DNA from: Candidatus Glassbacteria bacterium
Lineage (GTDB): Bacteria; Gemmatimonadota; Glassbacteria; GWA2-58-10
DNA: 64,000 nucleotides
Assembly: GCA_963752515.1 (NCBI GenBank)
Contig: CAVVYO010000007.1
Coordinates: 112,660-176,659 of the forward strand
Direction of reading: 5' to 3'
Each line of letters starts with the position of its first letter. Position 1 is the first letter of the stretch. Made by a program: the position numbers and the translations under genes. The notes under the pieces are model-generated. The model worked only from the letters and a program-made list of their open reading frames with translations. It ran no database searches and was not told where the DNA came from. Positions 17,534 through 53,722 of this stretch are shown one piece after another.

Positions 17534-17548
17534 CTCCTGCGGTTGGAG

Positions 17549-21987: not shown

Positions 21988-22920
21988 TCAGAACCTCCGC
22001 AACAGGCCGGCAGCGGTGGTGTCATACGGGCCACCGGTGGTATCGCCCGGGACACTGGTGGTATCACCCGGGACACCGGTGGTATCGCCCGGCACGCCGG
22101 TGGTGTCACCCGGGACACCGGTGGTGTCACCCGGGACACCATCCAGCTCGATCTCGACCATCGTCTCCTCATCCTCGGTCACATCGGCCTCGACCTGGCC
22201 GACCACTGTCCCGGTGGTGTCGCGGACCAGGATCGTGAACGGGCCGGGCGGCAGGAAGCCGAGGGTGAACCCGCCATCCTCGCCGACAAAGGTCGAGGTG
22301 ACGGTGTCGGCGCCGCTGACAGCATAGACCACCGCCCCGCGCGGGGCATCCGGCAGCTCACCGCTGACCTTGCCGACGCTGTCGGCGGTGACCAGGCGCA
22401 AGGTGGGGTCGAAGTCGTAATTATCCGCCCCCTCCTGGGCCTGGACCGAGCGGGCGACATCGAAGTCCACCACCACCTCGGTGGTTTGGTCCTCCTCCAC
22501 CATGAAGCCATCCTGGTTCTCGACCATGGCGGCATTGCCGGGCACTGTCAGCTGATAGCTCTGGGTGTCGGCCGTCACCACGGTCGCCTGCCCGATGCTG
22601 ATCCGGACCGCATCGTAGAAACCGGTGTCGATCTCGGCCTCGGCCAGCAACTCGGACTCGCCGCCGGTGAGCTGCAGCAGGTCCAGGCTCACCGGCTGCT
22701 GGGAGAGGGTCACCCATTGGTCGTTGCGACGCGCCTCCACCCGGGTGATGGTCAGGTTGAACTGATCGAAAGCCGCCGGGGCATCGGCCAGGTAGATCGC
22801 CAGGGTGCCCTGCAGGCCGGTCCCCGGTCCGACCGGGGTCGTGTCATCATCATCGCAGGCCGCCGCCAGCGCGAGCAACGGCCAGGCCAATACTGTCAGA
22901 TACTTGAATGCGACTCGCAA
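21988..22920 (-). CDS. DUF4382-like lipoprotein with C-terminal tandem GVPGDTT heptad repeats
   Basis: AAGGAGG 6 nt upstream of TTG start at 22918-22920; lipobox LLALAAAC; body resembles DUF4382 (TLAIYLADAPAAFDQFNLTITRVEA). Confidence 0.6.
   Translation of the reverse strand: MRVAFKYLTVLAWPLLALAAACDDDDTTPVGPGTGLQGTLAIYLADAPAAFDQFNLTITRVEARRNDQWVTLSQQPVSLDLLQLTGGESELLAEAEIDTGFYDAVRISIGQATVVTADTQSYQLTVPGNAAMVENQDGFMVEEDQTTEVVVDFDVARSVQAQEGADNYDFDPTLRLVTADSVGKVSGELPDAPRGAVVYAVSGADTVTSTFVGEDGGFTLGFLPPGPFTILVRDTTGTVVGQVEADVTEDEETMVEIELDGVPGDTTGVPGDTTGVPGDTTGVPGDTTSVPGDTTGGPYDTTAAGLLRRF
22018..22143 (-). repeat. 21-nt tandem repeat (about 6 units, CCGGTGGTGTCACCCGGGACA-like) encoding GVPGDTT repeats
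   Basis: Direct inspection: near-identical 21-mers in tandem inside the DUF4382-like CDS. Confidence 0.7.
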
Positions 22921-23011
22921 CTTCCGCCTCCTTGATCCTGATTGTTCCGCACCTGGCCCCCGGCTTCCGTCCGGACCATGCCGGGGACTCTCCCCGCAAA
23001 CCCGCCCGAAC

Positions 23012-23051
23012 CTGTACCGATCTGGCACAACCCTGTGCCGGATCGGTACAG
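23012..23051. promoter_or_regulatory. 18-bp inverted repeat CTGTACCGATCTGGCACA-ACCC-TGTGCCGGATCGGTACAG upstream of DUF4382-like gene; contains TGGCAC-N5-TGTGC resembling a sigma-54 -24/-12 element
   Basis: Near-perfect palindrome (1 mismatch) about 95 nt upstream of TTG start; GG-to-GC spacing is 11 rather than the canonical 10. Confidence 0.35.
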
Positions 23052-23406
23052 GCGCGATGACCACCCTGTTCGGGCGGCCGGTGGGCGGGGCCGGAGGGAG
23101 GGGGCCTCCCTGCCCGCACTCCGACCGTGCGGCTCTCAGGTCTGCAAGGCGAATGCCACGCGGGGGGTGTTAGTGTGCTAACCTGCAAATTTACAAAGAA
23201 TTAGATGTTTCTGGCGGCGGGTGGTCCGGGGCGGGCGCGGCTTTGCGGGAAAAATGATAAAATGCTGAAAAAAAGGTATCAGCTTTTTAAAATATTGCTT
23301 ATCAAAGACCTGAAGCGATCGGGCGGCGGTAAAGCCGAGCTCAAGGAACCGGTTCCCGGGGCCGCGCGAAACATCTGATAGTCTTCACAGCGTTGTCAAA
23401 TCGGGA

Positions 23407-36364: not shown

Positions 36365-36751
36365 GGACAGACCTCCGTGGGTGGCGCGGAAGAATGGGGC
36401 AGGGTGTATCAGGTAGCTTGGCGATGATAATAAGCGATTTCTTCCCTTGCGGCCACGATTACGAGTGATAAGTTAGGCAGGACGATCCCCGGCGGCCCCG
36501 CCGACTCATCCGGCGGCAGGCCCGCCGCTGCCCGGCTTCCGCCTCGGACTGCCGCTTAAGCCCGCTGTGACCGCTGCCGGGCGATCAGGCTCGACCCGGC
36601 CGCGGGGATGCTCCGCGGCGCTTGCGATCCCCGCCGCGAGGGCGGCGCTTGCGGCGGCTGAAACGGCTGTAACAAAACTCCGCCCACCGGAGTGTATGAG
36701 TCAGGTCCACCGCTCTGGGCGGCGAGGGCCGCGAAACGGCGGTCTTTCTTG

Positions 36752-36780
36752 ACAATTCGGGCGGCGCAAGTATAATAAGT
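36752..36780 (+). promoter_or_regulatory. Consensus sigma-70 promoter TTGACA-17 nt-TATAAT upstream of hybrid sensor kinase gene
   Basis: TTGACAATTCGGGCGGCGCAAGTATAAT; about 165-nt leader before ATG 36949. Confidence 0.5.
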
Positions 36781-36948
36781 ATCGTTCTGTGAAATGGTTT
36801 CGGTTATCTGACAGAAAATTGGAGGAACAGCCAGCGGCGCTAAGTTGTCGATCCGCTGCCGGGAGTCGCTTCCCGACAGCATAGGCAAGATGCAAGTCCA
36901 TCGTCCGGCGCTTCACAGCGTGATCCGCCGGCGAAGAAAGTCCGACAG

Positions 36949-39900
36949 ATGTTCCTGCGCGGGATTTCCCCCCATGGTTCCGGGCGCAGGGAGGCTGGCG
37001 CGGCAGGATTTTGTGCCGTCTTCCTGGGCCGGATAAAGCGTATTGTCGGCACACCGGTCCTTCCGGCGCTGGTGGGCTTTTCGCTCCTGTTTTCCTCCCC
37101 GCTCCATCCCCAGACCTACCCTTTCCAGACCTACACCGGCAGCCAGGGCTTCCCCCGGACCTCGATCCTCAGCCTGTTCCAGGACTCGCGGGGCTACCTC
37201 TGGTTCGGCACCTGGAACGGCCTGTACCGTTTCGACGGCGCCGAGCTGGCGGCTTTCGAGAAGCAGGACGGGCTGGGCCACAACTCGGTCTGCTCGATCG
37301 GCGAGGACCGCCGCGGCCGGATGTGGTTCGGCACGGTCGGCGGCGGGGTGAGCTGCCTCGAGGCGGGCCGCTGGCAAACCTTCACCACCCGGGATGGGCT
37401 GGCCAGCAATCATGTCCAGTGCATCGTCCAGGACCGTCGCGGCCGGCTCTGGTTCGGCCACTACGAGCAGGGGCTGAGCTGCCTGGAGGACGGGCGCTGG
37501 AGCACGATCACCACCGCCGGCCCGCAGGGTCCGCCCATCAAGGATGTCCGTTCGATGCTGGAGGACAGCCGGGGCAACCTCTGGATCGGCACCGCCGGCG
37601 AGGGAGTGTTGCGCTACGATGGCAGCCGCTGGCAGGTGTTCACCACGGCGGATGGCCTGGCCGGCAACCATGTGATGCACCTGTCGGAGGATCGCCGCGG
37701 CCGGATCTGGTTCGGCACGGATGCCGGGTCGAGCTACTACGACAACGGGCGCTGGCGCAGTTTCACCTGCCGGGATGGGATGGTGGACTGCCGGGTCGAT
37801 TGCATCATCGAGGACCGGGACGGCAACCTCTGGTTCGGCACCCGTCGCGGCGTGACGCGTTACGATGGCCAGGGATTCAGGACTTTCACCCGTGAGGATG
37901 GGTTGGCTCGGGACCACGTCCGCACCATGCTCCAGGATGCCGAGGGCAACCTCTGGTTCGGCACGGTCGGCGGCGGGCTGTCCCGGCTGGGCCCCTCGCC
38001 GTTTCTCAACTATACCAAGCGCGATGGGCTCGGGGATGACATGGTGATCACTGTCCTCGAGGACCGCCAGGGCAACCTCTGGGTCGGCACCTACGGCGGG
38101 GGGCTGAGCCGGATGACCCCGAATGGCCGCTGGACCACTTTTACCGAGCGCGATGGGCTGGCCAGCAACTACATCCGCTCCCTGTACGAGGACAGCCAGG
38201 GACGGCTCTGGTATGGGACCTACCAGTTCGGGGCCGGCTTCTTCGACGGGGGCGGCTGGAAGCTGGCCGGGCCCGGCAACGGCATGGAGTACCAGGACGT
38301 GGTCTGCATCTTCGAGGATCGGGAACGCCGGCTGTGGTTCGGGACCTCCCGCGGAGCGTTCTGCCTGGATCAAGGTCGCTGGAGTACCCTCACCACCCGG
38401 GAGGGTCTGGCCCACAACACGGTTTATTCGATCCGGCAGGACAGTGCCGGCGCCCTCTGGTTCGGCACTTTCGGCGGAGGGGTGAGCATCCGGGAGGGTG
38501 ACCGCTGGCGCCACCTCACGGAGCAGGATGGCCTGCTCAGCGACTTTGTCCAGGTGCTCTTCCAGGCGCGCGACGGCAGCCTCTGGATCGGCGGCGAGGG
38601 CGGGGTCTCCCACTACACCACCGATGGCCGCTTCGTCAACTACACCGCCCGCGAGGGATTTGTCGGCAACACCTGCAGCGCGATTGTCGCCGATGACTAT
38701 TACCTCTATTTCGCCAGCAACCTCGGGGTCAACCGCTGGGATGGCGAGAGCTTCAAGAGCTTCTCCAGCCGGGATGGCCTGGCGGGAGATGAGCTCAACA
38801 AGGGCTCCTGTTTCCACGACAGCCGCGACCGGTTGTGGTTCGCCACCTCGACCGGCCTGTCCTGCTTCGAGCCCGAGCGCTACCGGCCCAACCTCATTCC
38901 GCCGCCGGTTTACATCAACCGGGTCAGCGGCCCGGAAGGCCAGGGCTACGGCCCCTCCAGCCGCCTCGGCCACCGTCGTAACGACCTGACGTTCGATTAC
39001 TCCGCGGTCTGCTTCACCTCCCCGGGGGCGCTGGTCTACCATTACCGGCTCCAGGGCCACGACCCGGACTGGCAGACCACCCGCGCCCGGAGCATCCGTT
39101 ACGCCAGCCTGCCCGGCGGAGAGTACCGCTTCCAGGTCCGGGCGGTCAACACCGATGGGGTCTGGAGCAGCGCCGCGGCCGAGTTCGATTTCTACATCGA
39201 GCCCCCGTTCTGGGAAAGCTGGTGGTTCCTGCTCTGCGGCGGATCGCTGCTGGTGGGTCTGGTGTTCGCCGGGGCCGGCCAGTGGTACCGCCGCCATAAC
39301 CGGCACCACCTCCAGGAAAAGGAGGAGGAGCTGACCCACATCCGCCTGGACAACCTGGAGCGCCGCCGCTCCGAGGCCGCCCTGCTCGAGGAGCGCGGCA
39401 AGCTGAGCCTGCTGCTCCAGCACGAGCGCCTGCTGTCGCGCATCGCCGCCCGGCTCAACTCGGCCGGCTCGTTCGGGGATATCCTGCAGGAACTGCTGGA
39501 GGAACTGGGACGCACGGTCTCGGCTGAGCACCTGAGCTTCTTCGAGCTGGCCGGCCGGCCCTCCGGAGAGCGGCGGCTGGCGCGGCTGGCCTGCTGGTGC
39601 CCGGGCAATGGCTGCCGCTGCCCGATCGAGCTCGATCCGCCGGCGGCCGGCCGCCTGCTCGAGCGGCTCCGCGCCAGCGGCTATGCGGTGCTGGTCGAGG
39701 AGCCGAGCACCAATGGCGGCCGGGGGCTGATCGGCTGCGAGGTCGGCGACCGCTGGGGACTGGTGGCCCCGCTGGCCCTGGATGGCGACCTGCGCGGGCT
39801 GTTCTGCTGCTGCCGCCCCGGACGCCTGGCCTGGAGCGAGAACGAGCTCGAGCTCTGGCGGACGGTCTCACACCTGATCCTCGGCGCCTGGGAGCGCCAG

Positions 39901-40695
39901 CTCCAGTTCCAGGCCCTGCTGGAGGCCGAGAAGAATCGGGCCGAGGCGATCCAGCTGGCCGAGCAGGCCGGGCGTCTGGCCTCGATCGGCGAGCTGGCGG
40001 CCGGGATCACCCACGAGATCCTCCAGCCGCTGACCACGATCAATTTCGCGGTCAACCGCCTGATCTACTGGCACAAGAGCAACGAGGGGGTGCTGCCGGA
40101 GGCTTTCGCCGGCCGGCTGCAGAAGATCTCTTTCGGCGTGGAGCGCATCGACCACATCATCCAGCACATGCGCTCGTTCTGGGATTCCCCGGGCCAGGAG
40201 CCGGATCGGCCGACCGATCTCAACCAGGCGGTCGAGGCCGCGCTGTCGCTGATCGGCCGCCAGCTCTACGCCCACGGGGTGAACCTGCAGGTGAGCCTGT
40301 CCCCCGCCCCGCTGACTGTCGACAGCCAGTCGATCCGGCTCGAGCAGGTGGTGATCAACCTGACGGTCAATGCCATGCACTCGCTGGATTCCCGGGGCGG
40401 GTCGCAGGAGAAGCGGCTGGAGATTTCCACCTTTATCGAGGAGGGCCAGGCGGTGCTCGAGATGCGCGACAACGGGACCGGGGTGCCGGCCGAGGCCCTG
40501 CCCCGGATTTTCGATGCCTTTTTTACCACCAAGCGGCCGGGCGAGGGCACCGGCCTGGGCCTGGCGATCGTCCGGCGCTTTGTCGAGAAGTGCGCCGGGA
40601 CTATCGCCGTGGCCAACAACGAGAGCGGAGGCGCCGTCTTCACCGTGCGCCTCCCGATCGCCGCCGCGGTGCGGCCCCACTCGGACCGGGGGTGA
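36949..40695 (+). CDS. Ligand-binding sensor histidine kinase with two-component regulator propeller (Reg_prop repeats, Y_Y_Y), TM, GAF-like segment, HisKA, HATPase_c
   Basis: About 12 repeats of the RGxLWFGTxxGG type; TM WWFLLCGGSLLVGLVFAG; H-box GELAAGITHEILQPLTTI; ATPase GTGLGLAIVRRFVEKCAGTIAVANNESGGAVFTVRLP (paralogous to C-terminus of 837-4091). Confidence 0.85.
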   Translation: MFLRGISPHGSGRREAGAAGFCAVFLGRIKRIVGTPVLPALVGFSLLFSSPLHPQTYPFQTYTGSQGFPRTSILSLFQDSRGYLWFGTWNGLYRFDGAELAAFEKQDGLGHNSVCSIGEDRRGRMWFGTVGGGVSCLEAGRWQTFTTRDGLASNHVQCIVQDRRGRLWFGHYEQGLSCLEDGRWSTITTAGPQGPPIKDVRSMLEDSRGNLWIGTAGEGVLRYDGSRWQVFTTADGLAGNHVMHLSEDRRGRIWFGTDAGSSYYDNGRWRSFTCRDGMVDCRVDCIIEDRDGNLWFGTRRGVTRYDGQGFRTFTREDGLARDHVRTMLQDAEGNLWFGTVGGGLSRLGPSPFLNYTKRDGLGDDMVITVLEDRQGNLWVGTYGGGLSRMTPNGRWTTFTERDGLASNYIRSLYEDSQGRLWYGTYQFGAGFFDGGGWKLAGPGNGMEYQDVVCIFEDRERRLWFGTSRGAFCLDQGRWSTLTTREGLAHNTVYSIRQDSAGALWFGTFGGGVSIREGDRWRHLTEQDGLLSDFVQVLFQARDGSLWIGGEGGVSHYTTDGRFVNYTAREGFVGNTCSAIVADDYYLYFASNLGVNRWDGESFKSFSSRDGLAGDELNKGSCFHDSRDRLWFATSTGLSCFEPERYRPNLIPPPVYINRVSGPEGQGYGPSSRLGHRRNDLTFDYSAVCFTSPGALVYHYRLQGHDPDWQTTRARSIRYASLPGGEYRFQVRAVNTDGVWSSAAAEFDFYIEPPFWESWWFLLCGGSLLVGLVFAGAGQWYRRHNRHHLQEKEEELTHIRLDNLERRRSEAALLEERGKLSLLLQHERLLSRIAARLNSAGSFGDILQELLEELGRTVSAEHLSFFELAGRPSGERRLARLACWCPGNGCRCPIELDPPAAGRLLERLRASGYAVLVEEPSTNGGRGLIGCEVGDRWGLVAPLALDGDLRGLFCCCRPGRLAWSENELELWRTVSHLILGAWERQLQFQALLEAEKNRAEAIQLAEQAGRLASIGELAAGITHEILQPLTTINFAVNRLIYWHKSNEGVLPEAFAGRLQKISFGVERIDHIIQHMRSFWDSPGQEPDRPTDLNQAVEAALSLIGRQLYAHGVNLQVSLSPAPLTVDSQSIRLEQVVINLTVNAMHSLDSRGGSQEKRLEISTFIEEGQAVLEMRDNGTGVPAEALPRIFDAFFTTKRPGEGTGLGLAIVRRFVEKCAGTIAVANNESGGAVFTVRLPIAAAVRPHSDRG

Positions 40696-40698
40696 TGC

Positions 40699-42165
<1,467 letters not shown>

Positions 42166-42465
42166 GCGGATTCCCGCCACCGCTGACCGCAGCGCGACGC
42201 CCCGGCCCCCCGGGGCGTCGGCGTTTGGGCTCCCGCCGCAGCTGGCTGGTTCTGCACGTTGGTTGAAAATATTTGGTTGAAATTATCCAATTGGTTATTG
42301 ACAACCACTTCCCTCCGCTCGAATGAACCGCGTAAATCCATCCGCAGCACGTAATTGCAGGGGTGTTGCTTCCTGGCATCATTATTGGATAAGAAAATAG
42401 CGACTGCAACAGGGTTCTCCCCCCCTGCCGGGCAGAATTGCGCCCGGAGGACTACGGCGGATGCG

Positions 42466-42858
42466 ATGCCTAATCGACTGAATGTGATGCTGATCGAGGA
42501 TGACCAGGAAGTGCTGGAGAGTCTGGATTTCACGCTCGACTCTCTGGGGTTTCGCACCGCGGCGTTTCTGGACCCGCGCGAGGCGATCCGCGCTTATTTC
42601 CGCAACCATTACGACCTGGTGATCACCGACTTGAAGATGCCCCAGCTCGATGGTCTGGGGGTGTTGTGCGCGTTGCGCGGGGGCGATCCCCAGGCGCGGG
42701 TGATCATCATCAGCGGGGCGCTGGAGAGCGGGAGCCGGGAGAAAGCCCGCCAGGCCGGGGCGGTGTGTTTCCTGCGCAAGCCATTGTTGGATATCGAGGC
42801 TTTTGTCGACCTGTTGGCCGGGATCGAGCAGGCGGTCAACCAGGCGGCCGAAGCTTGA
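42466..42858 (+). CDS. Standalone CheY-like receiver domain protein
   Basis: MPNRLNVMLIEDD...VITDLKMPQLDG; 130 aa. Confidence 0.7.
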   Translation: MPNRLNVMLIEDDQEVLESLDFTLDSLGFRTAAFLDPREAIRAYFRNHYDLVITDLKMPQLDGLGVLCALRGGDPQARVIIISGALESGSREKARQAGAVCFLRKPLLDIEAFVDLLAGIEQAVNQAAEA

Positions 42859-43212
42859 CTGGAAAGCTCCCCGAACGGAACGCAGCGTCCTCCCTGAAGT
42901 TGGGTTTTCGTACGGGGTCGGGAAAAGGCGAAAGGAAGGCAGGCCCAAGCCGGCCAATTGAAGCCTGACCGATTAGCCTTTTCCCACTTTTTGTGATTTG
43001 AGGCGGCCGGGAAGCGGTTGCCTGAGCGGTTTTGGCATGGGGGAGCGGAGCAGGCTCCCCATCACCCGCACGCGAGGGAGGGCCGGCGATGGCGTGAACC
43101 GATTCAGGAGTTGCTGCACTTCCGTTCCACAGCGATTCGGAGGTCACGGGAACATAATTGCCAAGTCTGATTCGTCTTTTTTTGGTTGCCAAGCAGATCC
43201 TTGGGAGGATCT

Positions 43213-46200
43213 ATGTCCAAGTTTGTTAAATTGTTAGGTTTGATGGCCCTGGTTGTGGCCTTGTGGGCCACGGCGGCCCTTGCCCAGCTTTCCACCTCCA
43301 AGATCGAGGGCACGGTCCGCGACAAGGACACCGGCCAGCCGCTGGCCGGCGTACAGGTGGTGGTCGAGGGCACGCGGCTGGGTAATGTCACCAATGATGA
43401 TGGTTATTATTTCATTCTGAACGTCCCGCCGGGACGGCGTGGGATCACTTTGACCTTTACCGGCTATCAGAAGACCACCATTTCTGATCAGCTGATCCTG
43501 GCCGGCCAGACCGCGACGGTCAACGCCACCCTCAGCTCGACCATTGTCGAGTTGCAGGGGATCACCGTGGCGGCGACCGCCGAGCCGATGGTGCCGCGTG
43601 ACAACACGGTGACCAAGGCTCGTCTGACCACCGACCAGATGGCGGAGATTCCGGCCACGCGGCTGGAGGACATGCTGACGCTCGAGGCCGGCGTGCAGTT
43701 GGGCGGCCCCGGCGCGATGGCCCGCGGGCTGCGCATTCGCGGCGGCCGGTTGGGCGAGGAGGCGATGGTGGTGGACGGGGTGACGGTGCGCAACTACAGC
43801 GCCGACCCGTTCCGCAGCGGCCTGGGCTGGGTCTGGGAGCAGGAGGAGGGCTCGCTCAGTCAGGATGCCACTCCGCTGGAGTTCTCCACGGCCGGCGTGG
43901 AAGAGGTCGACATCATCACCGGCGGCTTCCAGGCCGAGTATGGCAACGCCCAGTCGGGCATTGTCAATGTCGTCACCAAGGAGGGCTCGGCCCGCTACGA
44001 GGGCAACGTGCGCCTGATCAGCGACCAGCTCAACCCACGCACCTCGGACTTCGGCTACAACCAGCTGCAGACCTCGGTGGGCGGGCCGGTGCCGCTGATC
44101 AAGAACTTCTACTTCAATGTTTCGGGCGAGCTTCAGGGCGAGGCCGACCGCACCCCGACCCATGCCGATGCGGGCTTCCGCGGGATCAACCAGACCTTTG
44201 TCGACCGGCTCAACAATGCGGTGCGCAACGACCCGGTCTTCGGCAACCAGATGCCGGCCTTCACGCTGGAGCAGTTCCAGCTGGGGCGTGAGTTCTACGC
44301 CAGCAAGACCGGGGCCAGCGCCGCGCTGTGGCAGCCGGGCAACCCGGTGCGCCAGCCCGACAACTGGGCCGATCGCACCATTACCACCGGCAAGCTGACC
44401 TACTACCCGTTCCAGGGCCTCAAGCTGCTGAGCTCGATCAACTTCTCGCGCAGCCAGAACGCCTACCCGACACGCAGCAACGGCGATTATTTCTGGACCG
44501 GGCAGATCGATGAGAGCACCCTGCCCAGCCGCGATTTTGCCGAGTGGAAGGGCGACTATATCGGCGAGGACGGGCTCTGGCACGGCTACATCCCGCAGAC
44601 CTACGGGCGGCGGGTGCGCACCAGCAACATGCTGGTCGGCGCCGACTGGGACTTTCTGCAGAGCGCCGAACGCAGCGCCACCCTGCAGTTCCGTTTCAGC
44701 CGGATGAAGACCCAGGAAATCGGCAGCTCGAGCCTGAAGGACAACTATGTCCGCTCGGACAAGACGCTGGGCTCCTGGTCGGCTCACGACATCCCGTTCG
44801 AGCTCGACGTTTTCCCGAACAAGGACCTGCCGCTGGACAACACCCCGGAAGCCGAGCTCTATTTCCCCAACGGTGAGGGTCCCTGGCAGCGCAGCTGGGA
44901 CATCGAGTATCCCTTCAAGCTGATGCGCGACAACGACCTGTACTGGCTGAGCTACTTCTATACCCGGGAGTGGCAGGACAACTACAAGGCCGATGTCGAC
45001 TTCCAGTGGAACCGCTTCAACCGCGCCAAGACCGGCGTGCAGTACTCGGACTTCGCGAACAACCGCTATGAGTTGCATAACATGGTCCGTCGGCGTGACC
45101 TGAACAACGAGTTCCGGTACCAGCCGACCATCCTGTCGGGCTACCTGCAGAACCGCACCGATCTGGGCGACTTCGTCTTCAACTACGGGTTGCGCTTCGA
45201 CCGCTTCGACCCGGTCGACAACTGGGGCCTGCGCAGCGGCGACCAGTGGGGGGAGAATTTCTTCCCGACCGTGCTCAACGAGTGGAGCCCGCGGTTCGAT
45301 GTGGGCTTCCCGGTGACCGACAAGGCGCAGATGCGCTTCAGCTATGGAGTGTTCAGCCAGCTGCCGAGCTTCAGCTTCATCTTTGACGGCAGCAACCCCG
45401 GCGGGCTGGAGTACAGCCGCACCGACGCTTTCGAGGCCGGGATGAGCTACATGCTGAGCGACGACATGGTGCTGGACCTGGTGACCTACTACCGCGATGT
45501 CGATGGCAACGTGGCCAGCAAGGAGTTCTTCCGCGACTACCAGCAGTGGCACGAGGAGCGGCGGGTTCGCGACTGGACCACCGGTTACAGCAACAAGGAC
45601 AACGGCAACATCAAGGGGATGGACCTGACCCTGCGGCGCCGTTTTGCCAACAATTTCGCCTTCAGCATGATCTACACCCTGCAGTTTTCGCGCACGACCG
45701 GCAGCCAGTACGGCACGACCTCGCAGTGGAACGTGTTCATCGACCCGGCCACGGGCGAGACGTTCACTCCGCCGGATGAGCTGCGGCCGATCGATGGCGA
45801 CCGCACCCACGTGCTGAGCACCAACCTGAACTACATTTTCCCGGCGGATTTCCAGGCCGGGACGATGACCAACACGATCCTGCGCAACGTCGGGGTGACC
45901 GGGGTGTTCCGGTTGTTGAGCGGCCAGCCGGCTTATGACCGCATCGTCAACAGCGGCTCGACCTATCATCTGAACGCCTTCGAGGACGTCACCTACCTGA
46001 CGCGCCGCGATGGGCGTCCGATCGGCGGAGTCAACTACTTCCGCGGCCGTTGGGACTACAACCTGGACCTGCGGCTCACCAAGCGTCTGCAGGTGGGCGG
46101 CACGCGGCAGGTGTCGGTCTTCAGCGAGATCGCCAATGTCTTCAACAAGAAGTACCCGACGCCTTATCCATCGGGCTACAACTACGAGGGTTACTTCCGC

Positions 46201-46413
46201 GGTCCGGGCGGCGGTCAGGAGCTGGTCTGGAGCGATGCGCTGAGCCCGGAGCAGAAGGTTTACTTCAATGGCGACTTCAACCAGGACGGCCGGCTGTCGC
46301 TGGAGGAGCAGGCCAAGGTGGTGATGGCCCAGTCGATGCTGACCGGCACGATGGACAAGAGCCAGTACGGCATCGCCCGGCACGTGCGGATGGGGTTGGA
46401 GTTCAGTTTCTGA
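43213..46413 (+). CDS. SusC/RagA-like TonB-dependent outer-membrane receptor (carboxypeptidase-regulatory-like domain + plug + barrel)
   Basis: GGGAGG RBS; signal MSKFVKLLGLMALVVALWATAALA; CarbopepD_reg-like N-domain (KIEGTVRDKDTGQPLAGVQVVVEG..NDDGYYFI); C-terminal aromatic terminus ..RMGLEFSF. Confidence 0.85.
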   Translation: MSKFVKLLGLMALVVALWATAALAQLSTSKIEGTVRDKDTGQPLAGVQVVVEGTRLGNVTNDDGYYFILNVPPGRRGITLTFTGYQKTTISDQLILAGQTATVNATLSSTIVELQGITVAATAEPMVPRDNTVTKARLTTDQMAEIPATRLEDMLTLEAGVQLGGPGAMARGLRIRGGRLGEEAMVVDGVTVRNYSADPFRSGLGWVWEQEEGSLSQDATPLEFSTAGVEEVDIITGGFQAEYGNAQSGIVNVVTKEGSARYEGNVRLISDQLNPRTSDFGYNQLQTSVGGPVPLIKNFYFNVSGELQGEADRTPTHADAGFRGINQTFVDRLNNAVRNDPVFGNQMPAFTLEQFQLGREFYASKTGASAALWQPGNPVRQPDNWADRTITTGKLTYYPFQGLKLLSSINFSRSQNAYPTRSNGDYFWTGQIDESTLPSRDFAEWKGDYIGEDGLWHGYIPQTYGRRVRTSNMLVGADWDFLQSAERSATLQFRFSRMKTQEIGSSSLKDNYVRSDKTLGSWSAHDIPFELDVFPNKDLPLDNTPEAELYFPNGEGPWQRSWDIEYPFKLMRDNDLYWLSYFYTREWQDNYKADVDFQWNRFNRAKTGVQYSDFANNRYELHNMVRRRDLNNEFRYQPTILSGYLQNRTDLGDFVFNYGLRFDRFDPVDNWGLRSGDQWGENFFPTVLNEWSPRFDVGFPVTDKAQMRFSYGVFSQLPSFSFIFDGSNPGGLEYSRTDAFEAGMSYMLSDDMVLDLVTYYRDVDGNVASKEFFRDYQQWHEERRVRDWTTGYSNKDNGNIKGMDLTLRRRFANNFAFSMIYTLQFSRTTGSQYGTTSQWNVFIDPATGETFTPPDELRPIDGDRTHVLSTNLNYIFPADFQAGTMTNTILRNVGVTGVFRLLSGQPAYDRIVNSGSTYHLNAFEDVTYLTRRDGRPIGGVNYFRGRWDYNLDLRLTKRLQVGGTRQVSVFSEIANVFNKKYPTPYPSGYNYEGYFRGPGGGQELVWSDALSPEQKVYFNGDFNQDGRLSLEEQAKVVMAQSMLTGTMDKSQYGIARHVRMGLEFSF

Positions 46414-46494
46414 GGACCGCCGTGCCGGTGGCAATGTTTTCATGATCCGGCGATGCGGTTATTCTCTCAGCAGGCATCATACAGGAGTAACCAC

Positions 46495-49400
46495 ATGCTC
46501 GACAGACAGTTTTTGATCAAGCTGATGGTTGTAGCCCTGCTGGTGGCGGTCGCCCAACCCGCCCGGGCGGAGTTGAAGAGCCACGTGTCATCCAAGGGCA
46601 ACAACATCGGGTTTGCGGTCCGCGTCGGTTTCGGCGGCCCGTTCAATACTTATGATGACAGTCATCAGTTTCCGCGCGGCTCGGGGAACATGTACACCTA
46701 CGGCCGCTGGCAGTGGGGCGTGAACGTGGCGCGTGACCTCGACGGCGATGGGACGCCCGAGGACACGATGACCAACCGTTCCCGTAACGGCACGTGGGAG
46801 GGCCAGCGCCAGTCGCTGGAGTTCGGCGATGAGCTGGCCGCGGCCGCGGCCGCCGGCGAGCGCATGAGTGAGTTTTCCGGCCGGATCACCAGCAACCGGG
46901 TCTGGACCTCGACCGACGCCGACGATCTGGCCGACTGGCCGGTGGAGTTCCGCGCGGGCCGGAGCCCGAGCGGCGAGCCGATCCTGCACGGGGCCGAGAC
47001 GATCGTCTGCATGCTGGGCAACGCCTTTACCGAGAGCCAGGATGCGGTGGGCGCCTCGATCGAGGTTCGGGCGCATTTCCTGAACTTTGCCGAGTCGAAC
47101 AACATGGTGTACGCGCACGTGTTCTTCCAGAACATGTCGGAGTACATCAAGTGGAACTTCAACCAGGACGTGCGCGCCCTGGTGGCCAACACCCCGGACG
47201 GGCAGGTCTGGCAAGGGGTGCAGATGGTCTACGGCTATGGCAACGGCTGCTATTCCGGCAGCGGCAACGACGAGGCCTGGCTGTACTACTACCCGATGGG
47301 AATCATCGCCCACTGCGATGCCAACGGAGTGGAGAGTTCCTTCACCACTAACCCGGCGGCGGTGGCGGCGATGCACTTCGAGAACCCGAAGTGGAACGGC
47401 CAGGAGATGAAGTTCACCAACGCCATGGCCCACCGCTGGAACTCGGAGTTCGGCGGCCCGACCCCGCTCGAGGTGCTCGAGGGCGGCCACAATACCGGTG
47501 TGGGCTACCGCTACGGCAACGGTAAGTACGATCCCTACGCTCCATCGGCGTTTTTGGTGGGTTACACCAGCCCCTGGACCGGTGGCACGCTTTACGGTTG
47601 GCCGGGAGTGCTGGAGCCGGGTGACCCGCGCTACAATCAGTGGATCTGGGGCACCAAGAACAACCAGAACTCCTACAACTTCTGGAGCGAGTTCAAGGAC
47701 TTCGCCCCGCGCGACAGCTTCAGCGTGGACTGGGTGGCCGCTTTCGTCATGCCGGCCAGCCCGCCGTATGCTTTCCCGCAGTCGGTGATCGCTGAGATCG
47801 ACAATCCCAGCGTGCAGACCCAGATGCAGCCGATCATCGACTACATGAACGTGGCGCGGATCGTGCGCGATGGCGGCTTCATCCTGCCGGAGACGCCGAC
47901 CCCGCCGCCGTTGACGATCATCCCCGGTGACAAGCAGGTGACGATCACCTGGAGCGATGTCAACCTCAACACCCCGGATGCCTACTATGGCTTCCTGCAG
48001 CAGTATCCGGAGCTGGATCCCGATGGGCGTTACCGCCAGTACGACTTCGAGGGCTACCGGCTTTACCGCAGCTTTGTCGGGCCCAGCGACTCGCACAGCA
48101 AGCTGCTCTGGGAAGGCAGCCTGAGTGGCGAAAACCTCCAGTTCTACTATATCGACACCCAGGCCAAGGACGAGCCCTACTACCGGATGCAGAACGGGAT
48201 GCACGTCTGGTATGCCCTGGTGGCGTATGACCGGAACGTGGACCCGGTCACCCAAGTGGAGTTCAGCCTGCCGGATGCCACCAGCGGCAAGACCTGGAAC
48301 CGCCCGGCGAGCGCTCCGCTGTTTACGGTGGAGGCCCGCAGCAATGCCAGCAACTTCCGTGCGGCCACTTTTGGCAGCGTGCCTACACCCCCTTCCACGG
48401 CGGCACCCTGACCGAGGGCGCCAGTACCGAGCTTCGCGGCGACGGCAGCGGCAAGCTGCTCGATGCCCCGAAACTGCTGGCCCCGATGTTGAGTTTCGAG
48501 CTGGATGCGATCACCAGCGAGAAAATCATGCGGACCAGACCGTGATGCTGGTTTGCACCGGGATGGAAAGCTTCGACTTCGGCGGCTGGAACTGGCCGAC
48601 CGGGACCCGCGGCTTCGAGCTGCAGACCAGCAGCGGCGCAGGATCAGCAATCCCGCCGCTGGTGCGGGGCATTCACCAGGAACGGTGGCGCTGCCAGCAG
48701 TGAGCTGGTGGTCCACGGCCCGGTGGACACGCCGAGGGTGCGGCCTATGCGCTGAAGACCACGATCGAGGGCCTGGCCCATGGCGATGCCGAGGCCAACC
48801 TGTACAATGACGTCAACGCCGGCGGCTACGCCGGGGCGACGATCGCTCCGGCTCGCTACCGCTGCGGCGCGCAACTGGCTCGGCGCCCCGAGACAACATG
48901 GGCTGGGTCACCAGCGCGCAGTTCAGCCTGACCTGGGGCACCGCCAATGGCGAACTGACCGTGGCGGTCAAAAACCTCACCACCGGGCCGTGCCGTTCGG
49001 CCAGTACCCCGATGACTTAGGCTGGGGCATCGCTCCCGGCGCGATCATCGGCACCCTGGGGTTCGGCCGAGCAACATCTATAACGAGCTGTCCCTGCCGC
49101 AGGCGGACCGTACCTTAAGCTGGTGCAGAGCCTGCCCGCGGACAACACCGAGGGATTCGGGATCTGGGTCAACGGCATCTTCTGGGTGTTCAGCGACCTG
49201 ACCGCGATGCCGGCGCCGGCACGGTGATCACCATCGCCACCGTCTGGGGCAGCTGGAACGGCGGACCAGACCATCTTCACCCAGGAACCCGATCCGCCGT
49301 TCACTGGCGACAAGTGGACCATCCAGATCAAACCACGACTCTGAATGCCGAGGATGCCGACCTCAGCCAGATCAGGGTGGTGCCGAATCCCTACATGGCC

Positions 49401-49739
49401 AGCTCGTTCCTGGACCTGTCGCCGGAAAGCCGCCGCATCGAGTTCGTCAACCTGCCGGACCAGTGCACGATCCGCATCTACTCGATGGGCGGGAACCTGG
49501 TCAACGTGCTCAACCATATCGGCGCCAACCGGATGGGCTGGGGCGACTACACCGACTGGGACCGGCTGGACAACAACAGCCAGCCGAAGGAGTTTACCGG
49601 TTACGACAACCACAGCGGCACCGAGCCGTGGAACCTGCGCAACCGTTTCGGCCAGACCGTGGCCAGCGGCCTGTATTTCTTCCACGTGACTGACTCTCGG
49701 GGAGAGACCCATACCGGGAAGTTCTACATCATCAACTGA
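46495..49739 (+). pseudogene. Large secreted protein with FN3-like segment and a T9SS C-terminal sorting domain; intact to 48411, then protein-like translation hops frames about 8 times before an in-frame T9SS CTD
   Basis: AGGAG RBS; signal MLDRQFLIKLMVVALLVAVAQPARA; after 48411 good peptide segments appear in alternating frames (AYTPFHGGTLTEGASTELRGDGSGKLLDAP; MLVCTGMESFDFGGWNWPTG; DNMGWVTSAQFSLTWGTANGELTVAVKN; YLKLVQSLPADNTEGFGIWVNGIFWVF; QTIFTQEPDPPFTGDKWTIQIKP); C-terminal IRVVPNPYMAS..RIEFVNLPDQCTIRIYSMGGNLVNVL..SGLYFFHVTD..GKFYIIN matches the T9SS CTD. Confidence 0.55.
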
Positions 49740-49798
49740 TGATCGATGCAGACGGATTGCCGGTATGTCAACTTTCCCGACGATAATGGAGGTAGAAC

Positions 49799-51011
49799 AT
49801 GTTGAAGAAGATGGCCACAAGGGCTTTGCTGATCGCTGGCCTGCTGCTGTCGTTCGTCGCTTTCCCGGCCCTGGCCCAGGGTGTGGCGCGGCAGGAGTAC
49901 AGCGGCCTGGACAAATACCCCGAGCAGGGGCGGCCGGATGAACTCCTCGTTTGTCGGAGTCAGGGCGGCCGAGTTTCTGAAATCCCGGTCGGTGCTCGCG
50001 GCATCGGCATGGGCAGTTCCTTTTCGGCCGTCACCGACGACATCAGCTCGATGTGGTGGAACCCGGCCGGTCTGGGCTTCCTGCAGCAGAAGGAAGTGAT
50101 GTTCAATGTCGTTGACTACACCATGGACCTGACCTACAGCTACCTGGCCGCCGCCGCTCCGATGGCCGATGGGCGGGTGGTGGTGGGCGGGTTCTTCGGT
50201 TATCTCGACATCCCGGACATGCAGATCACCACGGTCGGCTCTCCCGCAGGGCACGGGCCGCACTTTTTCCGCCTATGACTTCCAGATGGGCGGCTCGTTG
50301 GCCTACACCCTGTCGGACCGCTTTATCGCCGGGATGAACTTCAAGTACATCCACCAGGACATGTTCAACAACATCGGCGGCGACGCTTTCGCTATCGATG
50401 CCGGTGCGATCTACCACACCGAGCTGGCCGACCGCGAGGTCCGTTTCGCGTTCGCGATCCAGAACCTGGGCACCAACATCACCATGCGCGGCCCGAACCT
50501 GCTGTACGAGGTCGGTCCGGAAGATGGCAGCGGGTTGCTGCCCTACGGGTACCAGGATTACACGAACTACGTTTACGCCCTGCCGCGGCGCAGCAACCGC
50601 TGGGCCTACCGGCAGACGCACACCTACCGGTTGCCGACGATTGTCAAGCTGGCGCTGTCCTACAACCTGTACACCGGTGAGAGCGCCAACTGGCTGGCCT
50701 CGGCCGAGCTGTGGCGCAACAGCAGCACGCCGATCAGCTATGCCACCGGCACCGAGATGAACTACAACTTCACGCCGTTTTTGTCCGGGGCGATTCGCGC
50801 CGGCTGGTTGATCCAGACCGACGAGTTCACCAATGACACGGACGAATTCGGCTACTCCTACTGGGGCGATGACCCGACCTTCCGGGGCGTAAGCTTCGGC
50901 GGCGGGATCAAGCGCACCTTCGGCGGCCGGGCGATCGACTTCAACTACGCCTACCGCAACAAGGGCCGCCTGACGGCGGATAACTTCTTCACGGTTTCGT
51001 TCGGCTTCTGA
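49799..51011 (+). CDS. PorV/PorQ-family (T9SS-associated) outer-membrane beta-barrel protein; one apparent frameshift near 50240
   Basis: GGAGG RBS; signal MLKKMATRALLIAGLLLSFVAFPALAQG; GARGIGMGSSFSAVTDDISSMWWNPAGLGFL resembles the PorV N-terminal block; C-terminal ..NFFTVSFGF ends in Phe; frame switches from 49799 frame to 50169 frame around TTTTT at 50255. Confidence 0.65.
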
Positions 51012-51054
51012 GTTTCAACCAGACGGTAAATTGAGCCGAAGAACCGTCCAATCG

Positions 51055-51096
51055 CCCCTCGGCCCGGCCTGACAGGTCGGGCCGGGGGCTTTTTAT
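51055..51096 (+). terminator. Rho-independent terminator after PorV-like gene
   Basis: GGCCCGGCCTGACAGGTCGGGCCGGG hairpin followed by GGCTTTTTAT. Confidence 0.55.
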
Positions 51097-51216: not shown

Positions 51217-53722
51217 ATGTCCCGTCTGCTGAATCTCACGCGGCAACCCGCATCGCTTCTCACCCTGGGCCTGCTGCTGGCCCTGCTGCTTCCGCTTTCC
51301 CGGGTTCGGGCCGAGGAGTCTCCCGCCGGGACGCTGCTGCTGGAGGGTTTCGAGGAGCAGGACGCGCTGGAGCGCTGGTACTTCCAGGAGGCCGCCGGCC
51401 AGCTTGCCACCGCCCGCGCCACCGAGGGAGTCCGCTCGGCCCGGATCAGCTTTGGAGCCGAGGGCCGGAAGGGGCCGGAACTCGCGATGCGCCTGCCCCT
51501 GGATCAGCATTACCTGCCGGGCAACGACTACCTGCCCTTTGACCGCCTGGCGTTCGATGTCTACAACGAGACCGGCAAGGTGATCGAGCTGCGGGCCGGG
51601 CTGCGGGATACCCTCGGCAACCAGCTCTCCTACCGCACCTTCTCCATCCCGCCCCGCAGCGGCATGACCTGCGAGCTGCCCATCGCCCATCTCTTCAAGC
51701 ACGTGCCGCAGGTTTTCGGCAGCCGGGGGGAGAAGGAAGAGCAGCCGCCGAAGATCCTTTCTTTCTACCTGCTGCTGGTCGAGCGGAACGAGCTCTACCT
51801 GGACAACCTGCGGCTGGTGGCGAGTCCGCTCGAGGTCAGAGAGGCCGGGTTGGGGCTCGACCCGTTCCAGGCCGGCCGGGTACTGGCCGGTTGCCGGCTC
51901 AATCGCGCCGCGGCCTGCGACCTGAGGATCATGGACGATCAGGGCCGCATCGTGGCCCGCCACTACCAGCTCACCGACCTGTTCCGCTGGAGCTGGGAGA
52001 GCGAGACCGACCGCTCGACCCTCGCTCCCGGCAGCTATACCGCCCGGCTGACTGTCGCCGATGTCCGCTGGAATCCCGACCGGCCGATCGTGCGCGAGCT
52101 GGGGAGCTTCCAGGTGGCTCCGGAGCGGGAGCGGCCGGAGCTGGTGGCCTGGCACGAGCCCACCACCCGCCAGGTGATGCTTTCCGACCGCCCGCAGGCC
52201 GGCCAGCCCGTGCTGACCTGGGAGGAGATCGCCGCGGAGAAGCCGGAGCTGGCCCCGCTGCGGATCGAGATGGCCCGGGGCGAGGTCGAGGGCGCCCAGC
52301 TGGTGTTCCTCACCCGCTCGCGCACCGCCCGCCTGGGCTTCGCGATCGAGGGCCTGAGTCACACCCGCGGCGGGATGCCTTTCCCGCTGGAGGGCGGCGA
52401 AATCCTGCAGGTGGGCTATGTCCTGACCCGCGACCCGCTCTACTACGAGGTGGACCACATCGGCTGGTGGCCGGATGCCCTGCTGCCGAATGCGCAGATG
52501 TATGCCGAGCCCCAGGAGTGCATGCCGGTCTGGGTGAACCTCCGCTCCGACCGGGAAACTGTCCCCGGGCTCTATCGCGGCCGGCTGGCGATCACCCTCA
52601 ACGGCGAGCGGGCCGGGTCGATCCCGCTGGAGGTGACGGTCCATCCGCCGGTGCTGCCGGAATCAGACTACGATCCGCACCGCGTTCACCACCTCCGATG
52701 AGCTGATCGCCGAGGTCCACGGCGGCAAGCTGCCACCGGGGATGCTGCGCCGCTACCACCAGTTTGTCGCCGACCATCGTCTGAACCCGGACAACATCTA
52801 CCGCAGCCGCCCGCCGGAGCTGGAGACGGTCGAGTACTTCGCCGGCAAGGACCAGCTCAACGCCTTCAACCTGAAGTACATCGGCGGCCGGGTGGAGATG
52901 ATCGACCAGATCGACAACGAGGCCTACCTGCAGGAGCTGGCCGATGAGCTCGACCCTTACGTGGCCGAGCTGCGCCGTCGCGGGCTGGCCGACAAGGCCT
53001 ATTTCTATGGCTTCGATGAAATCGGCGGCGAGATGTACGAGGTGGTCCGGCGCACTTTCGGCTTCCTGAAAAAACGCTACCCGGAAATCCCCACCATGAC
53101 TACCGGCCGCGATGCCAGCTTCGGGATCGACTCCGGCCTGGAGGACGAGGTGGACATCTGGGTGCCGCTCACCCCGGTCTATGATCTTCAGCGGGCCGAG
53201 GCCACCCGCAAGCGGGGCAAAGAGGTCTGGTGGTACATCTGCATCAGCCCGCCCCACCCTTACGCCAACTGGTTCGTCGAGTACCCGGCGCTGGAGCCCC
53301 GCCTGCTGTGGTGGATGACCTGGCAGCAGCGGGTCCCGGGCTTCCTCTACTACCTGACCAACCTGCGCCACGGCCAGGAAGAGCTGATGCGGCTGGACGG
53401 CCACAACAAGACCAACTGGAACCCGGCCTCGTGGCGCACGGCCAACGGGGATGGCTGCTTCATCTACAGCGGGCCCGAGGGACCGATCAGCACGATCCGC
53501 TTCGAGAACATCCGCGACGGGTTGGAGGACAGCGAGCTGCTGTTCCTGCTGGAGCGGCGCCTGAAGGATGGCGGCCGGGCCGGACAGGCGCTCTGCGGCG
53601 AGCTGATCCGCTCGCTGACCGACTACTGCCGGGACCCGGCGCAGTTCGCCGAGGTGCGGCGGCGGCTGCTGCAGCAGGCCGGAGGCCGGACGGTCACGCG
53701 GGCTGTCGGCGGGGGGGAATGA
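51217..53722 (+). pseudogene. Secreted DUF4091-like putative glycoside hydrolase; single apparent frameshift near 52690-52745
   Basis: AGGAGG RBS; signal MSRLLNLTRQPASLLTLGLLLALLLPLSRVRA; upstream ORF ends HRVHHLR* while the next frame reads TAFTTSDELIAEVHGGKLPPGMLRRYHQFVADHRLNP continuous with the 52742 ORF; GWWPDALLPN block. Confidence 0.5.

Follow-up and report, generated by a model that had tools for sequence, protein, structure and literature searches.

How might a bacterium bring a polymer to a TonB-dependent receptor whose gene has no SusD partner? Polysaccharide capture in the Bacteroidota is explained by SusC/SusD complexes. In the 64,000 nucleotides of Candidatus Glassbacteria DNA analysed here (the window, with a G+C content of about 67%), the gene of a large receptor is followed by that of another large exported protein, which we call the middle protein, and then by that of an outer-membrane barrel of the PorV/PorQ family. 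Our firm conclusion is that these three genes, hereafter the triad, form a conserved module of a receptor, a protein with a C-terminal domain (CTD) of its own kind and a PorV/PorQ-family barrel, in loci of the utilisation type that lack SusD. As to what the module does, we are evenly divided on whether it serves the SusD-independent capture and import of a nutrient, most likely a glycan, with the barrel acting as a permanent anchor. The Glassbacteria are, in GTDB, a class of the Gemmatimonadota (PMC11316326).

The triad, the predicted parts of the middle protein and the signal that ends the operon are laid out as follows; T9SS stands for type IX secretion system.

43213..46413, forward strand: TonB-dependent receptor of 1066 amino acids, with a signal peptide, a carboxypeptidase-regulatory-like N-terminal extension, a plug and a large barrel
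46495..49739, forward strand: middle protein, 1081 codons across frames, delimited by the coverage of the family profile; the open reading frame (ORF) is intact only to 48411
46495-46569, forward strand: Sec signal peptide of the middle protein, with an AQPARA/ELK cleavage site and no lipobox cysteine
46570-47892, forward strand: predicted beta-supersandwich N-domain (model pLDDT 96, pTM 0.94)
~47893-48300, forward strand: FN3-like domain
~48380-49334, forward strand: variable, beta-rich region
49335-49739, forward strand: divergent T9SS-like CTD
49799..51011, forward strand: PorV/PorQ-family (FadL-like) outer-membrane barrel matching NF033709, 403 amino acids after indel correction
51056..51088, forward strand: intrinsic terminator, a 15-bp stem with 12 G-C pairs, then CTTTTTAT, closing the structural operon

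The sequence-only reading of this locus had the three genes belong together, and synteny in related genomes bears this out. When the window proteins were compared by tblastn with 49 loci of the Glassbacteria type, a receptor was found upstream of the middle-protein gene in 38 of 38 informative loci, 51-68% identical to that of the window, and a barrel downstream in 47 of 47, intact at 403 amino acids; barrel homologs are 53-78% identical to the window copy. Single metagenome-assembled genomes (MAGs) hold at least 9-11 triads, and on one contig (L017:1414-17915) two complete triads lie head to tail: the module has therefore been duplicated as a unit. The same gene order is kept at 20-40% identity in 31 more distant loci, from Ignavibacteria, Melioribacteraceae (including a Melioribacter roseus MAG), Zixibacteria, Calditrichota, KSB1 and MAGs labelled Cytophagia/Bacteroidetes, with the barrel adjoining in 29 of 31 and the receptor in 25 of 25 informative loci. 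The middle proteins of the two sets, compared by hhalign, align end to end over 879 columns (probability 100%, E = 2e-47).

The family is large. Searched with the family profile, a set of 1.84 billion cluster representatives (50% clustering) yields 3,950 relatives with E <= 1e-3, of which 1,368 reach E <= 1e-10. With the Melioribacter protein as query, 8,000 candidates were scored and 4,741 of them have E <= 1e-5; all named relatives among the matches listed, including those of Ignavibacterium album, are called “hypothetical”. Close homologs come from Candidatus Glassbacteria, from MAGs labelled “Gemmatimonadales” and from one labelled “archaeon”. The latter, “archaeon isolate SMAG_U14205” (DATKXY01), contains at least 11 triads that closely resemble those of Glassbacteria (loci L006, L007, L010, L012, L013, L018, L030, L035, L044, L046 and L049), and its label is almost certainly wrong. 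No description of the triad was found in the literature on PorV/PorQ and TonB-dependent receptors, on Melioribacter and on Glassbacteria, in a survey that covers subscription journals thinly, and the genome papers of Melioribacter and Caldithrix do not mention it; the triad is apparently undescribed so far.

Could the first two genes be a SusC/SusD pair after all? The receptor scores 56.9 bits on the SusC/RagA model TIGR04056, against a cutoff of 368.25, and its homologs score 52.1 and 55.1 bits; the match is confined to model positions 2-207, that is, to the N-terminal extension and the plug. Pfam finds these same two parts as CarbopepD_reg_2 (57.3 bits, residues 31-119) and Plug (35.9 bits, residues 130-249), and no sequence relative of the receptor was found in the PDB at E 1e-3. 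Judged by these scores, the receptor lies outside the SusC/RagA family: the “SusC-like” label first given to it holds for a TonB-dependent receptor with an extension and a plug, and fails for the family. As for the middle protein, no Pfam family, SusD included, is found in it or in its intact homologs, nor is there an NCBIfam SusD match. It has no lipobox, and its predicted fold is made mainly of beta strands, unlike the alpha-helical, TPR-like fold of SusD. The view that SusD is missing from the partner position was thus right.

The conservation of the middle protein is uneven along its length. Among 87 members of the family the mean pairwise identity is 0.40 in the N-domain, 0.65 in the FN3-like domain, 0.32-0.43 in the middle region and 0.76 in the CTD. 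Four shorter relatives, P0049 (810 amino acids), P0096 (846), P0232 (806) and P0234 (970), keep the N-domain and the FN3-like part wholly or mostly, that is, the stretch from profile position 1 to about 530-580. P0049 and P0096 have dockerin type I repeats and a FlgD_ig-type C-terminal domain in place of the remainder; the C-terminal half has therefore been exchanged as a module.

The third gene encodes the barrel. On the PorV/PorQ family model NF033709, whose cutoff is 90 bits, the intact ortholog of locus L001 scores 142.9 bits (model positions 2-326) and that of Melioribacter 227.7, which upholds the family assignment made from the sequence alone; the two fragments of the window barrel score 57.5 and 70.3 bits on model positions 8-103 and 103-326. 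For both intact proteins the PorQ model gives the better score (72.7 bits for L001 and 111.7 for Melioribacter, against 54.4 and 82.2 with the PorV model), and both stay below the equivalog cutoffs for PorV (NF033710, 250) and PorQ (NF033711, 220), and below that for PorV2 as well. The barrel is a separate clade of the PorV/PorQ family. Its closest sequence in the PDB is Flavobacterium johnsoniae PorV (6h3i_F, E = 9e-7). The Glassbacteria barrel carries three insertions, of about 16-20 amino acids after the signal peptide, about 20 and about 19, that are lacking in the Ignavibacteria-type versions.

Since PorV is itself a FadL homologue (PMC12578637), one may ask if the barrel works as a channel of the FadL type, through which the locus imports a hydrophobic or amphipathic substrate, its likeness to PorV being a matter of common ancestry only. 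There is indeed a weak match to the FadL model Toluene_X (PF03349), with 22.6 and 25.3 bits in short N-terminal stretches; these scores do not reach the gathering cutoff of 29.7 bits, whereas on the PorV/PorQ model the cutoff is clearly exceeded. Moreover, the barrel is always coupled to a CTD-bearing protein, and its neighbours are glycoside hydrolases and sugar transporters. We find the channel barely credible.

At the far end of the middle protein, a T9SS CTD had been recognised from the sequence. Part of this claim survives, as a remote homology. The ORF that should carry the domain is broken in the window, and the window piece scores 16.4 bits on the type A model TIGR04183, below its cutoff of 23. 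Intact homologs match neither TIGR04183 nor the second type A model, PF18962 (cutoff 27 bits), and no match to a type B CTD model was returned for the middle proteins. A type A profile of our own making, built on two Por_Secre_tail domains verified with Pfam, finds 42 proteins in the 31 Ignavibacteria-type loci, none of which is the triad protein. Type A membership, negative by the curated models and by the home-made profile alike, was consequently rejected.

The homology appears when profiles are compared with each other: hhalign aligns the CTD with the type A profile at probabilities of 90.8% (E = 1e-6) and 93.5% (E = 2e-7). The motifs VVPNPY, CTIRIY, GLYFYHV and GKFxII(K/N) follow one another in the layout of T9SS CTDs, and the domain has 7-9 strands in the AlphaFold2 model of a full-length homolog, P0007 (pLDDT 83.8). 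The alignment, the shared motifs and the place of the domain at the extreme C-terminus of a protein with a Sec signal all point to the T9SS CTD superfamily. Among characterised proteins, the nearest is PorZ. It is the top fold match of the full-length P0007 model (5m11, E = 1.6e-6, probability 0.97), in a whole-chain search dominated by the noise of domain orientation (TM-scores of about 0.1-0.17); it alone is matched by the CTD profile among PDB sequences (E = 0.19); and the one NCBIfam match of the C-terminal region is to the C-terminal end of PorZ. The domain is thus best described as a distinct class, remotely related to T9SS CTDs, with the CTD of PorZ as nearest known relative. In its Glassbacteria version it has an insertion of about 28 amino acids that is lacking in the Ignavibacteria-type versions, so that the insertions of CTD and barrel are correlated: both are found in the Glassbacteria type only.

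What would the barrel then do for the protein encoded before it? In known systems, the CTD of PorZ is retained and bound by PorQ, and that of PorU stays on PorV (PMC10202324; PMC11285876); type B cargo is anchored by cognate PorP/SprF-like barrels (PMC10202324; PMC11285876; Gorasia et al. 2022, as cited in PMC10994853). The sequence-only reading took the barrel for an outer-membrane shuttle. As a dedicated shuttle of the PorV type, it would take the cargo from the T9SS translocon to the attachment complex, where the CTD would be cleaved and the protein otherwise fixed or released. The barrel does belong to the PorV/PorQ family, its best solved relative is the shuttle PorV, and the CTD is remotely homologous to the cleavable type A CTDs. 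A recyclable shuttle, however, is not needed for each cargo gene, yet every triad has its own barrel; this barrel scores higher as PorQ than as PorV; and the CTD resembles the retained CTD of PorZ rather than those of type A. We consider the shuttle unlikely, and prefer an anchor for three reasons: there is one barrel gene for each cargo gene, conservation is highest in the CTD (76% mean pairwise identity) and the barrel (53-78% identical to the window copy), and both partners carry lineage-specific insertions. The shuttle is therefore the part of the earlier claim that we would give up, the conserved unit being the part that stands.

Assuming that the barrel is an anchor, the module might work in the following way. 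The protein of about 1,080 amino acids would be exported by Sec, with a cleavable signal peptide and no lipid anchor, and would cross the outer membrane by means of its C-terminal T9SS-like beta-sandwich. The CTD would not be removed: it would be held, one to one, by the barrel encoded downstream, and the protein would be retained at the surface by analogy with PorZ on PorQ and with type B cargo on PorP/SprF-like barrels. There, the variable N-terminal supersandwich and the middle domains would bind the substrate and pass it to the co-encoded receptor, the role that SusD and the surface glycan-binding lipoproteins play for SusC. Surface exposure, the use of the T9SS, the retention of the CTD on the barrel, the cooperation with the receptor and the substrate are all things that we infer.

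A hint on the substrate comes from the N-domain, whose closest folds in the PDB are the N-terminal domains of GH94 phosphorylases, of dextran dextrinase and of GH116 enzymes (GH, glycoside hydrolase family). These matches are weak (E = 2e-4, TM-scores of at most 0.35, about 9% identity), and an assignment of the N-domain to a specific carbohydrate-binding family was dropped since only weak fold matches speak for it.

A second hint comes from the neighbours. In locus L001, a ROK regulator gene comes before the triad, AXE1, GH123-like, GFO/IDH/MocA, AP_endonuc_2 and pectate-lyase-like genes come after it, and RGL11 is present as well. The Melioribacter triad has a protein with CBM9 and Por_Secre_tail on one side and, on the other, a GH16 and malectin protein with Por_Secre_tail, a GH3 enzyme, a sugar transporter of the major facilitator superfamily (MFS) and a second GH3 enzyme; it is a beta-glucan locus. 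Around 36 triads, 108 families are found, among them GFO/IDH/MocA (6), AXE1 (5), Peptidase_S9 (4), melibiase (3) and GH123 (2). In the window, two genes of carbohydrate-active enzymes (CAZymes) flank the locus:

33602..36364, reverse strand: GH38 alpha-mannosidase-like gene, divergent from the kinase gene of the locus (Glyco_hydro_38N, Alpha-mann_mid, Glyco_hydro_38C)
51217..53722, forward strand: GH123-like glycoside hydrolase, split into ORFs 51217-52701 and 52637-53722 by a frameshift near 52670

The GH123 N-terminal domain lies in the first of these two ORFs and positions 126-323 of GH123_cat in the second (Pfam). Other genes of the CAZyme type in the window encode heparinase II/III-like, GH10 + BNR, sulfatase, GH67N-like, 3-keto-disaccharide hydrolase and GH42/DUF4832 proteins. 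The glycan setting first proposed for the locus is borne out by the GH38, heparinase II/III-like and GH123-like genes here, and by the GH16, two GH3, CBM9 and MFS genes of Melioribacter.

Elsewhere in this region, the reverse-strand gene at 21988-23064 encodes a DUF4382 protein with a weak carboxypeptidase-regulatory-like domain. Its neighbours are a 745-amino-acid ORF (23407-25644) without a Pfam or NCBIfam match and the GH67N-like protein, of 899 amino acids; together they are a further uncharacterised exported set in a CAZyme-rich region. We also note that, in Glassbacteria, the secreted CAZymes may do without canonical type A CTDs.

Several points weigh against a surface module that captures glycans by way of the T9SS. 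Contact among the three proteins is a matter that we infer. The CTD, as far as its sequence can tell, lies under the curated thresholds of type A and has no type B match. Among the roughly 40 window ORFs scanned, which stand for only 64 kb of the source genome, there is no T9SS core gene. The home-made type A profile matches nothing in the window or in about 0.84 Mb of Glassbacteria loci, and canonical T9SS cargo may therefore be rare or absent in these bacteria. The fold match of the N-domain is too weak to do more than suggest glycan binding. The triad neighbours include peptidases and proteins of the beta-lactamase fold, so that not every triad need be glycan-specific. Finally, two of the three window genes are interrupted, and a second assembly is truncated nearby.

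The lack of a canonical type A cargo in 0.84 Mb of Glassbacteria loci and the window keeps alive the idea of a self-contained pair that does without the T9SS: the barrel would help the protein to reach the outer membrane or to insert into it, or the protein would be periplasmic, docked under barrel and receptor. That the CTD is a distinct class with an insertion of about 28 amino acids, and that the barrel has matching lineage-specific insertions, would suit such a pair, and FadL-like barrels can hold partners outside the T9SS, as in BamG-BamH of the Bacteroidota BAM (PMC12578637). Against it, the CTD can be recognised as a homolog of T9SS CTDs and of PorZ, and the possible presence of T9SS genes in Gemmatimonadetes has been reported (PMC11285876). 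The Ignavibacteria-type triads, for their part, adjoin genuine Por_Secre_tail enzymes, from which it follows that these carriers have a T9SS. To a pair that works without the T9SS we assign only a small probability, and we keep to export through the T9SS.

The interrupted genes raise another question: is the window copy still functional? The ORF of the middle protein that begins at 46495 stops at 48411, after 638 amino acids. About nine changes of frame follow between 48382 and 49335: one near 48382, one near 48530 and one near 48882, after which two frames alternate until 49335. The barrel gene is split in its raw form into ORFs 49799-50278 and 50169-51011; a comparison with four orthologs locates three single-base indels, near 49939, 49978 and 50246, and their correction restores the conserved SFVGVRAAEFLEIPVGARGIGMGS stretch and a protein of 403 amino acids. 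In total, about 12 single-base indels fall in these two genes between 48.38 and 50.25 kb, or about 13 up to 52.67 kb with the GH123-like gene, and the 11-11.5 kb upstream of 48382 are free of them. For the GH123-like gene, a tblastn search of the window with the corresponding genes of L001 and L003 gave no match, and the split was deduced from Pfam coverage and frames.

One explanation is decay: the cluster would be a pseudogene cluster, with real frameshifts in a locus that no longer functions. The crowding of some 13 indels downstream of about 11 kb of intact sequence is what decay might leave. The deposited record also calls the truncated ORF (P0001, the same 638 amino acids on a 318-kb contig), and P0099, an about 93% identical protein from a second related assembly (a 1.16-Mb contig), ends at 647 amino acids, some 10 residues from the window truncation. 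Both truncations fall at the start of the variable middle region, but the two assemblies break at different positions. Moreover, once frames are corrected nothing is missing: the profile built from 87 full-length homologs is matched without a break from position 4 to 1078 across the window frames, the span of 1081 codons lies within the 1054-1108 amino acids of intact homologs, the invariant motifs are kept, and the corrected C-terminal part is 70% identical to P0002, against 61% for the intact N-terminal part. Other window genes are split in the same way, such as that of a XylE-like MFS sugar transporter (reverse strand, 17397-19128; ORFs 18016-19128 and 17397-18608), which points to a general indel problem of long reads. 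Because the motifs are kept, all profile positions are present and unrelated window genes are also split, the indels of the window copy are most likely assembly errors of the long-read type; decay is quite unlikely. Programmed or other biological frameshifting was also judged unlikely, since the changes are single-base and irregular, reach two neighbouring genes and are seen again in unrelated window genes.

How would the module be switched on? Upstream of the receptor lie the following features.

36749..36776, forward strand: sigma-70-type promoter TTGACA-16-TATAAT, with 12 of 12 consensus matches; the kinase ATG is 173 nt downstream
36949..40695, forward strand: sensor histidine kinase of 1248 amino acids (Reg_prop, Y_Y_Y, GAF, HisKA, HATPase_c)
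40699..42165, forward strand: NtrC-type sigma-54 enhancer-binding response regulator (REC, AAA+ and Fis-type helix-turn-helix (HTH) domains)
42195..42220, forward strand: GC-rich hairpin with an 11-bp perfect stem and a weak T run, an inverted repeat just 3' of the regulator gene
42259..42307, forward strand: AT-rich direct and inverted repeats, a candidate activator binding site (upstream activating sequence)
42374..42389, forward strand: sigma-54-type -24/-12 promoter TGGCAT-CATTA-TTGGA; the receiver ATG is 92 nt downstream
42466..42858, forward strand: single-domain response regulator, receiver only (Response_reg, 75 bits)

Most of this layout had been read correctly from the sequence. The promoter ahead of the kinase matches the consensus in full, in a divergent intergenic region shared with the GH38 gene of the reverse strand; such a 12/12 match is expected about 6e-4 times per whole window, an estimate from base composition. 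The activator gene begins 4 nt beyond the last base of the kinase stop codon, the receiver at 42466-42858 is indeed a solitary one, the gap of about 80 bp after the receptor measures 81 nt up to the ATG at 46495, and a strong terminator does end the locus, with its 15-bp stem and T run at 51056-51088.

The kinase needs one correction. It is a propeller kinase, as had been said, with 236 bits in 10 Reg_prop stretches and with Y_Y_Y, GAF, HisKA and HATPase_c (Pfam); it was also called a hybrid, and since a Pfam scan finds no receiver domain (Response_reg), and neither HTH_AraC nor another DNA-binding domain, it is not one. Its hydrophobic segments are a membrane anchor near residue 32 and a transmembrane segment at 757-778, which place the sensor of about 700 amino acids between them, two propellers and a Y_Y_Y domain, in the periplasm. 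A second large sensor kinase of the window (837-4091, 1084 amino acids), with multiple PAS domains, HisKA and HATPase_c, is unrelated to it.

The activator has Sigma54_activat (200.7 bits), Response_reg (91 bits) and HTH_8 domains (Pfam), a Walker A motif GETGTGKE at residue 199 and GAFTGA at 248; these domains, the GAFTGA motif and the -24/-12 site at its target are those of an NtrC-type sigma-54 enhancer-binding protein. The site at 42374-42389 has equivalents in L009, L020, L025, L028, L032 and L045, and near-matches in L015 and L041. In 843 kb, counting both strands, there are 25 instances of the strict pattern TGGYAY-N5-TTG; seven of them, mostly some 90-120 nt ahead of the receiver gene, fall in the approximately 8 kb that separate regulator from receptor in 10 related loci, against 0.12 expected. 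Its -12 element is mostly TTGT(C) in the related loci, not the canonical TTGC, and the window copy has TTGG. The search for such sites was thus fruitful upstream of 42466 and gave nothing convincing directly upstream of 43213: a site at 43147 (CGGGAA-N5-TTGC) has 7 of 11 matches and is not conserved in related loci, and the 42374 site was preferred. The receiver, which is presumed to be the first gene of the sigma-54 transcription unit, keeps its position, with REC matches upstream of the receptor in L009, L015, L025, L028, L041 and L045.

Between regulator and promoter, the hairpin at 42195-42220 may act as a terminator or attenuator that divides the regulatory transcription unit from the structural one. 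The repeats at 42259-42307, 67-115 nt upstream of the -24 element, consist of TTGGTTGAAAWTAT twice in tandem and an inverted TGGTT...AACCA. An AT-rich direct or inverted repeat of its own is found about 70-110 nt upstream of the -24 element in each of L015, L020, L028, L032, L041 and L045, for example GGCTAA...TTAGCC (L028) and TGATAAA...TTTATCA (L015). Since the repeat differs from one paralogous locus to the next while its relative position stays the same, these repeats suggest candidate activator binding sites particular to each NtrC-linked locus. The sigma-70 promoter would then drive the kinase and the activator, and the activator would switch on the sigma-54 promoter at 42374 and with it the operon of receiver, receptor, surface protein and barrel. 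The sigma-54 control with a propeller kinase that had been proposed is supported for a subset of loci, through the conserved site upstream of 42466: the kinase/activator pair accompanies only some triads, seven of them with activators about 47-51% identical, and different regulators stand at others.

All parts of the triad belong to known superfamilies, and the ideas of a cargo with its cognate barrel and of a receptor with a surface partner are already known; it is thus useful to see where the triad departs from each system it resembles. Like the SusC/SusD (RagA/RagB) systems, it has a large TonB-dependent receptor with a carboxypeptidase-regulatory-like extension, followed by the gene of a large exported partner, in many copies per genome and among CAZymes, sugar transporters and a dedicated sensor and regulator. 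Unlike them, its receptor scores 57 bits against 368, its partner is beta-rich, without Pfam SusD or lipobox, a third obligatory gene encodes a PorV/PorQ barrel, and a T9SS-like CTD takes the place of the lipid anchor. With PorZ-PorQ, part of the T9SS attachment complex of Porphyromonas gingivalis, the triad would share a surface protein held through its uncleaved CTD by a PorV-family barrel; PorZ is the best fold match and the only PDB and NCBIfam match of the C-terminal region, and the barrel scores as PorQ above PorV. However, PorZ and PorQ are single-copy and deliver anionic lipopolysaccharide (A-LPS), whereas the triad pair has been duplicated many times and is linked to a receptor and CAZymes; the triad proteins fall far below the PorZ and PorQ equivalog cutoffs, and the body of the protein is a supersandwich with an FN3-like domain instead of two beta-propellers.

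In the type B systems, such as SprB-SprF of F. johnsoniae, a cargo gene is likewise followed by its own barrel gene, of the PorP/SprF kind, and the cargo depends on this cognate barrel both for its secretion and for its anchorage at the surface (PMC10202324; Gorasia et al. 2022, in the account given by PMC10994853). The triad barrel is of the PorV/PorQ family and not PorP/SprF, its CTD has no type B match, and known type B pairs are not coupled to a TonB-dependent receptor. The geometry proposed for the triad is similar to that of BamG-BamH, where a 14-stranded FadL/PorV-like barrel lies against a larger barrel and its extracellular loops hold a surface-exposed protein (PMC12578637); this complex is single-copy and essential, serves outer-membrane protein assembly, and is likened to the triad by geometry and not by sequence. 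As to regulation, the periplasmic sensor, with two Reg_prop propellers and Y_Y_Y, is of the type found in the hybrid two-component systems of Bacteroides polysaccharide utilisation loci (PULs). The kinase of the locus differs in having neither a fused receiver nor an AraC-type HTH; a separate NtrC-type sigma-54 activator is found here, and an extra single-domain receiver heads the target operon.

What would the triad mean for the bacteria that carry it? With a confidence that falls somewhat short of even, we suggest that phyla related to the Bacteroidota (Gemmatimonadota class Glassbacteria, Ignavibacteriota, Zixibacteria, Calditrichota and KSB1) use a SusD-independent locus, in which each TonB-dependent receptor works with a large surface protein that is exported by the T9SS and docked permanently, through a new class of retained CTD, on its own PorQ-like barrel. 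The triad is a concrete candidate for the way in which polymers are fed to TonB-dependent receptors in relatives that have few or no SusD genes, and it occurs in Melioribacter roseus and Ignavibacterium album, species with cultured strains, the sequences being from MAGs or database entries so named. The split circuit of propeller kinase and sigma-54 activator, with a TTGT(C) -12 element in most loci, adds a regulatory variant. If the suggestion is true, it would provide a third route to substrate capture at the outer membrane, beside lipidation and A-LPS attachment, in thousands of loci now annotated as “hypothetical protein”, and a third class of CTD with a cognate barrel, beside PorZ/PorQ and type B/PorP. 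The biology of the T9SS would be widened beyond enzymes and adhesins to the accessories of transporters, and the triad would serve as a marker for utilisation loci where PUL prediction based on SusD fails.

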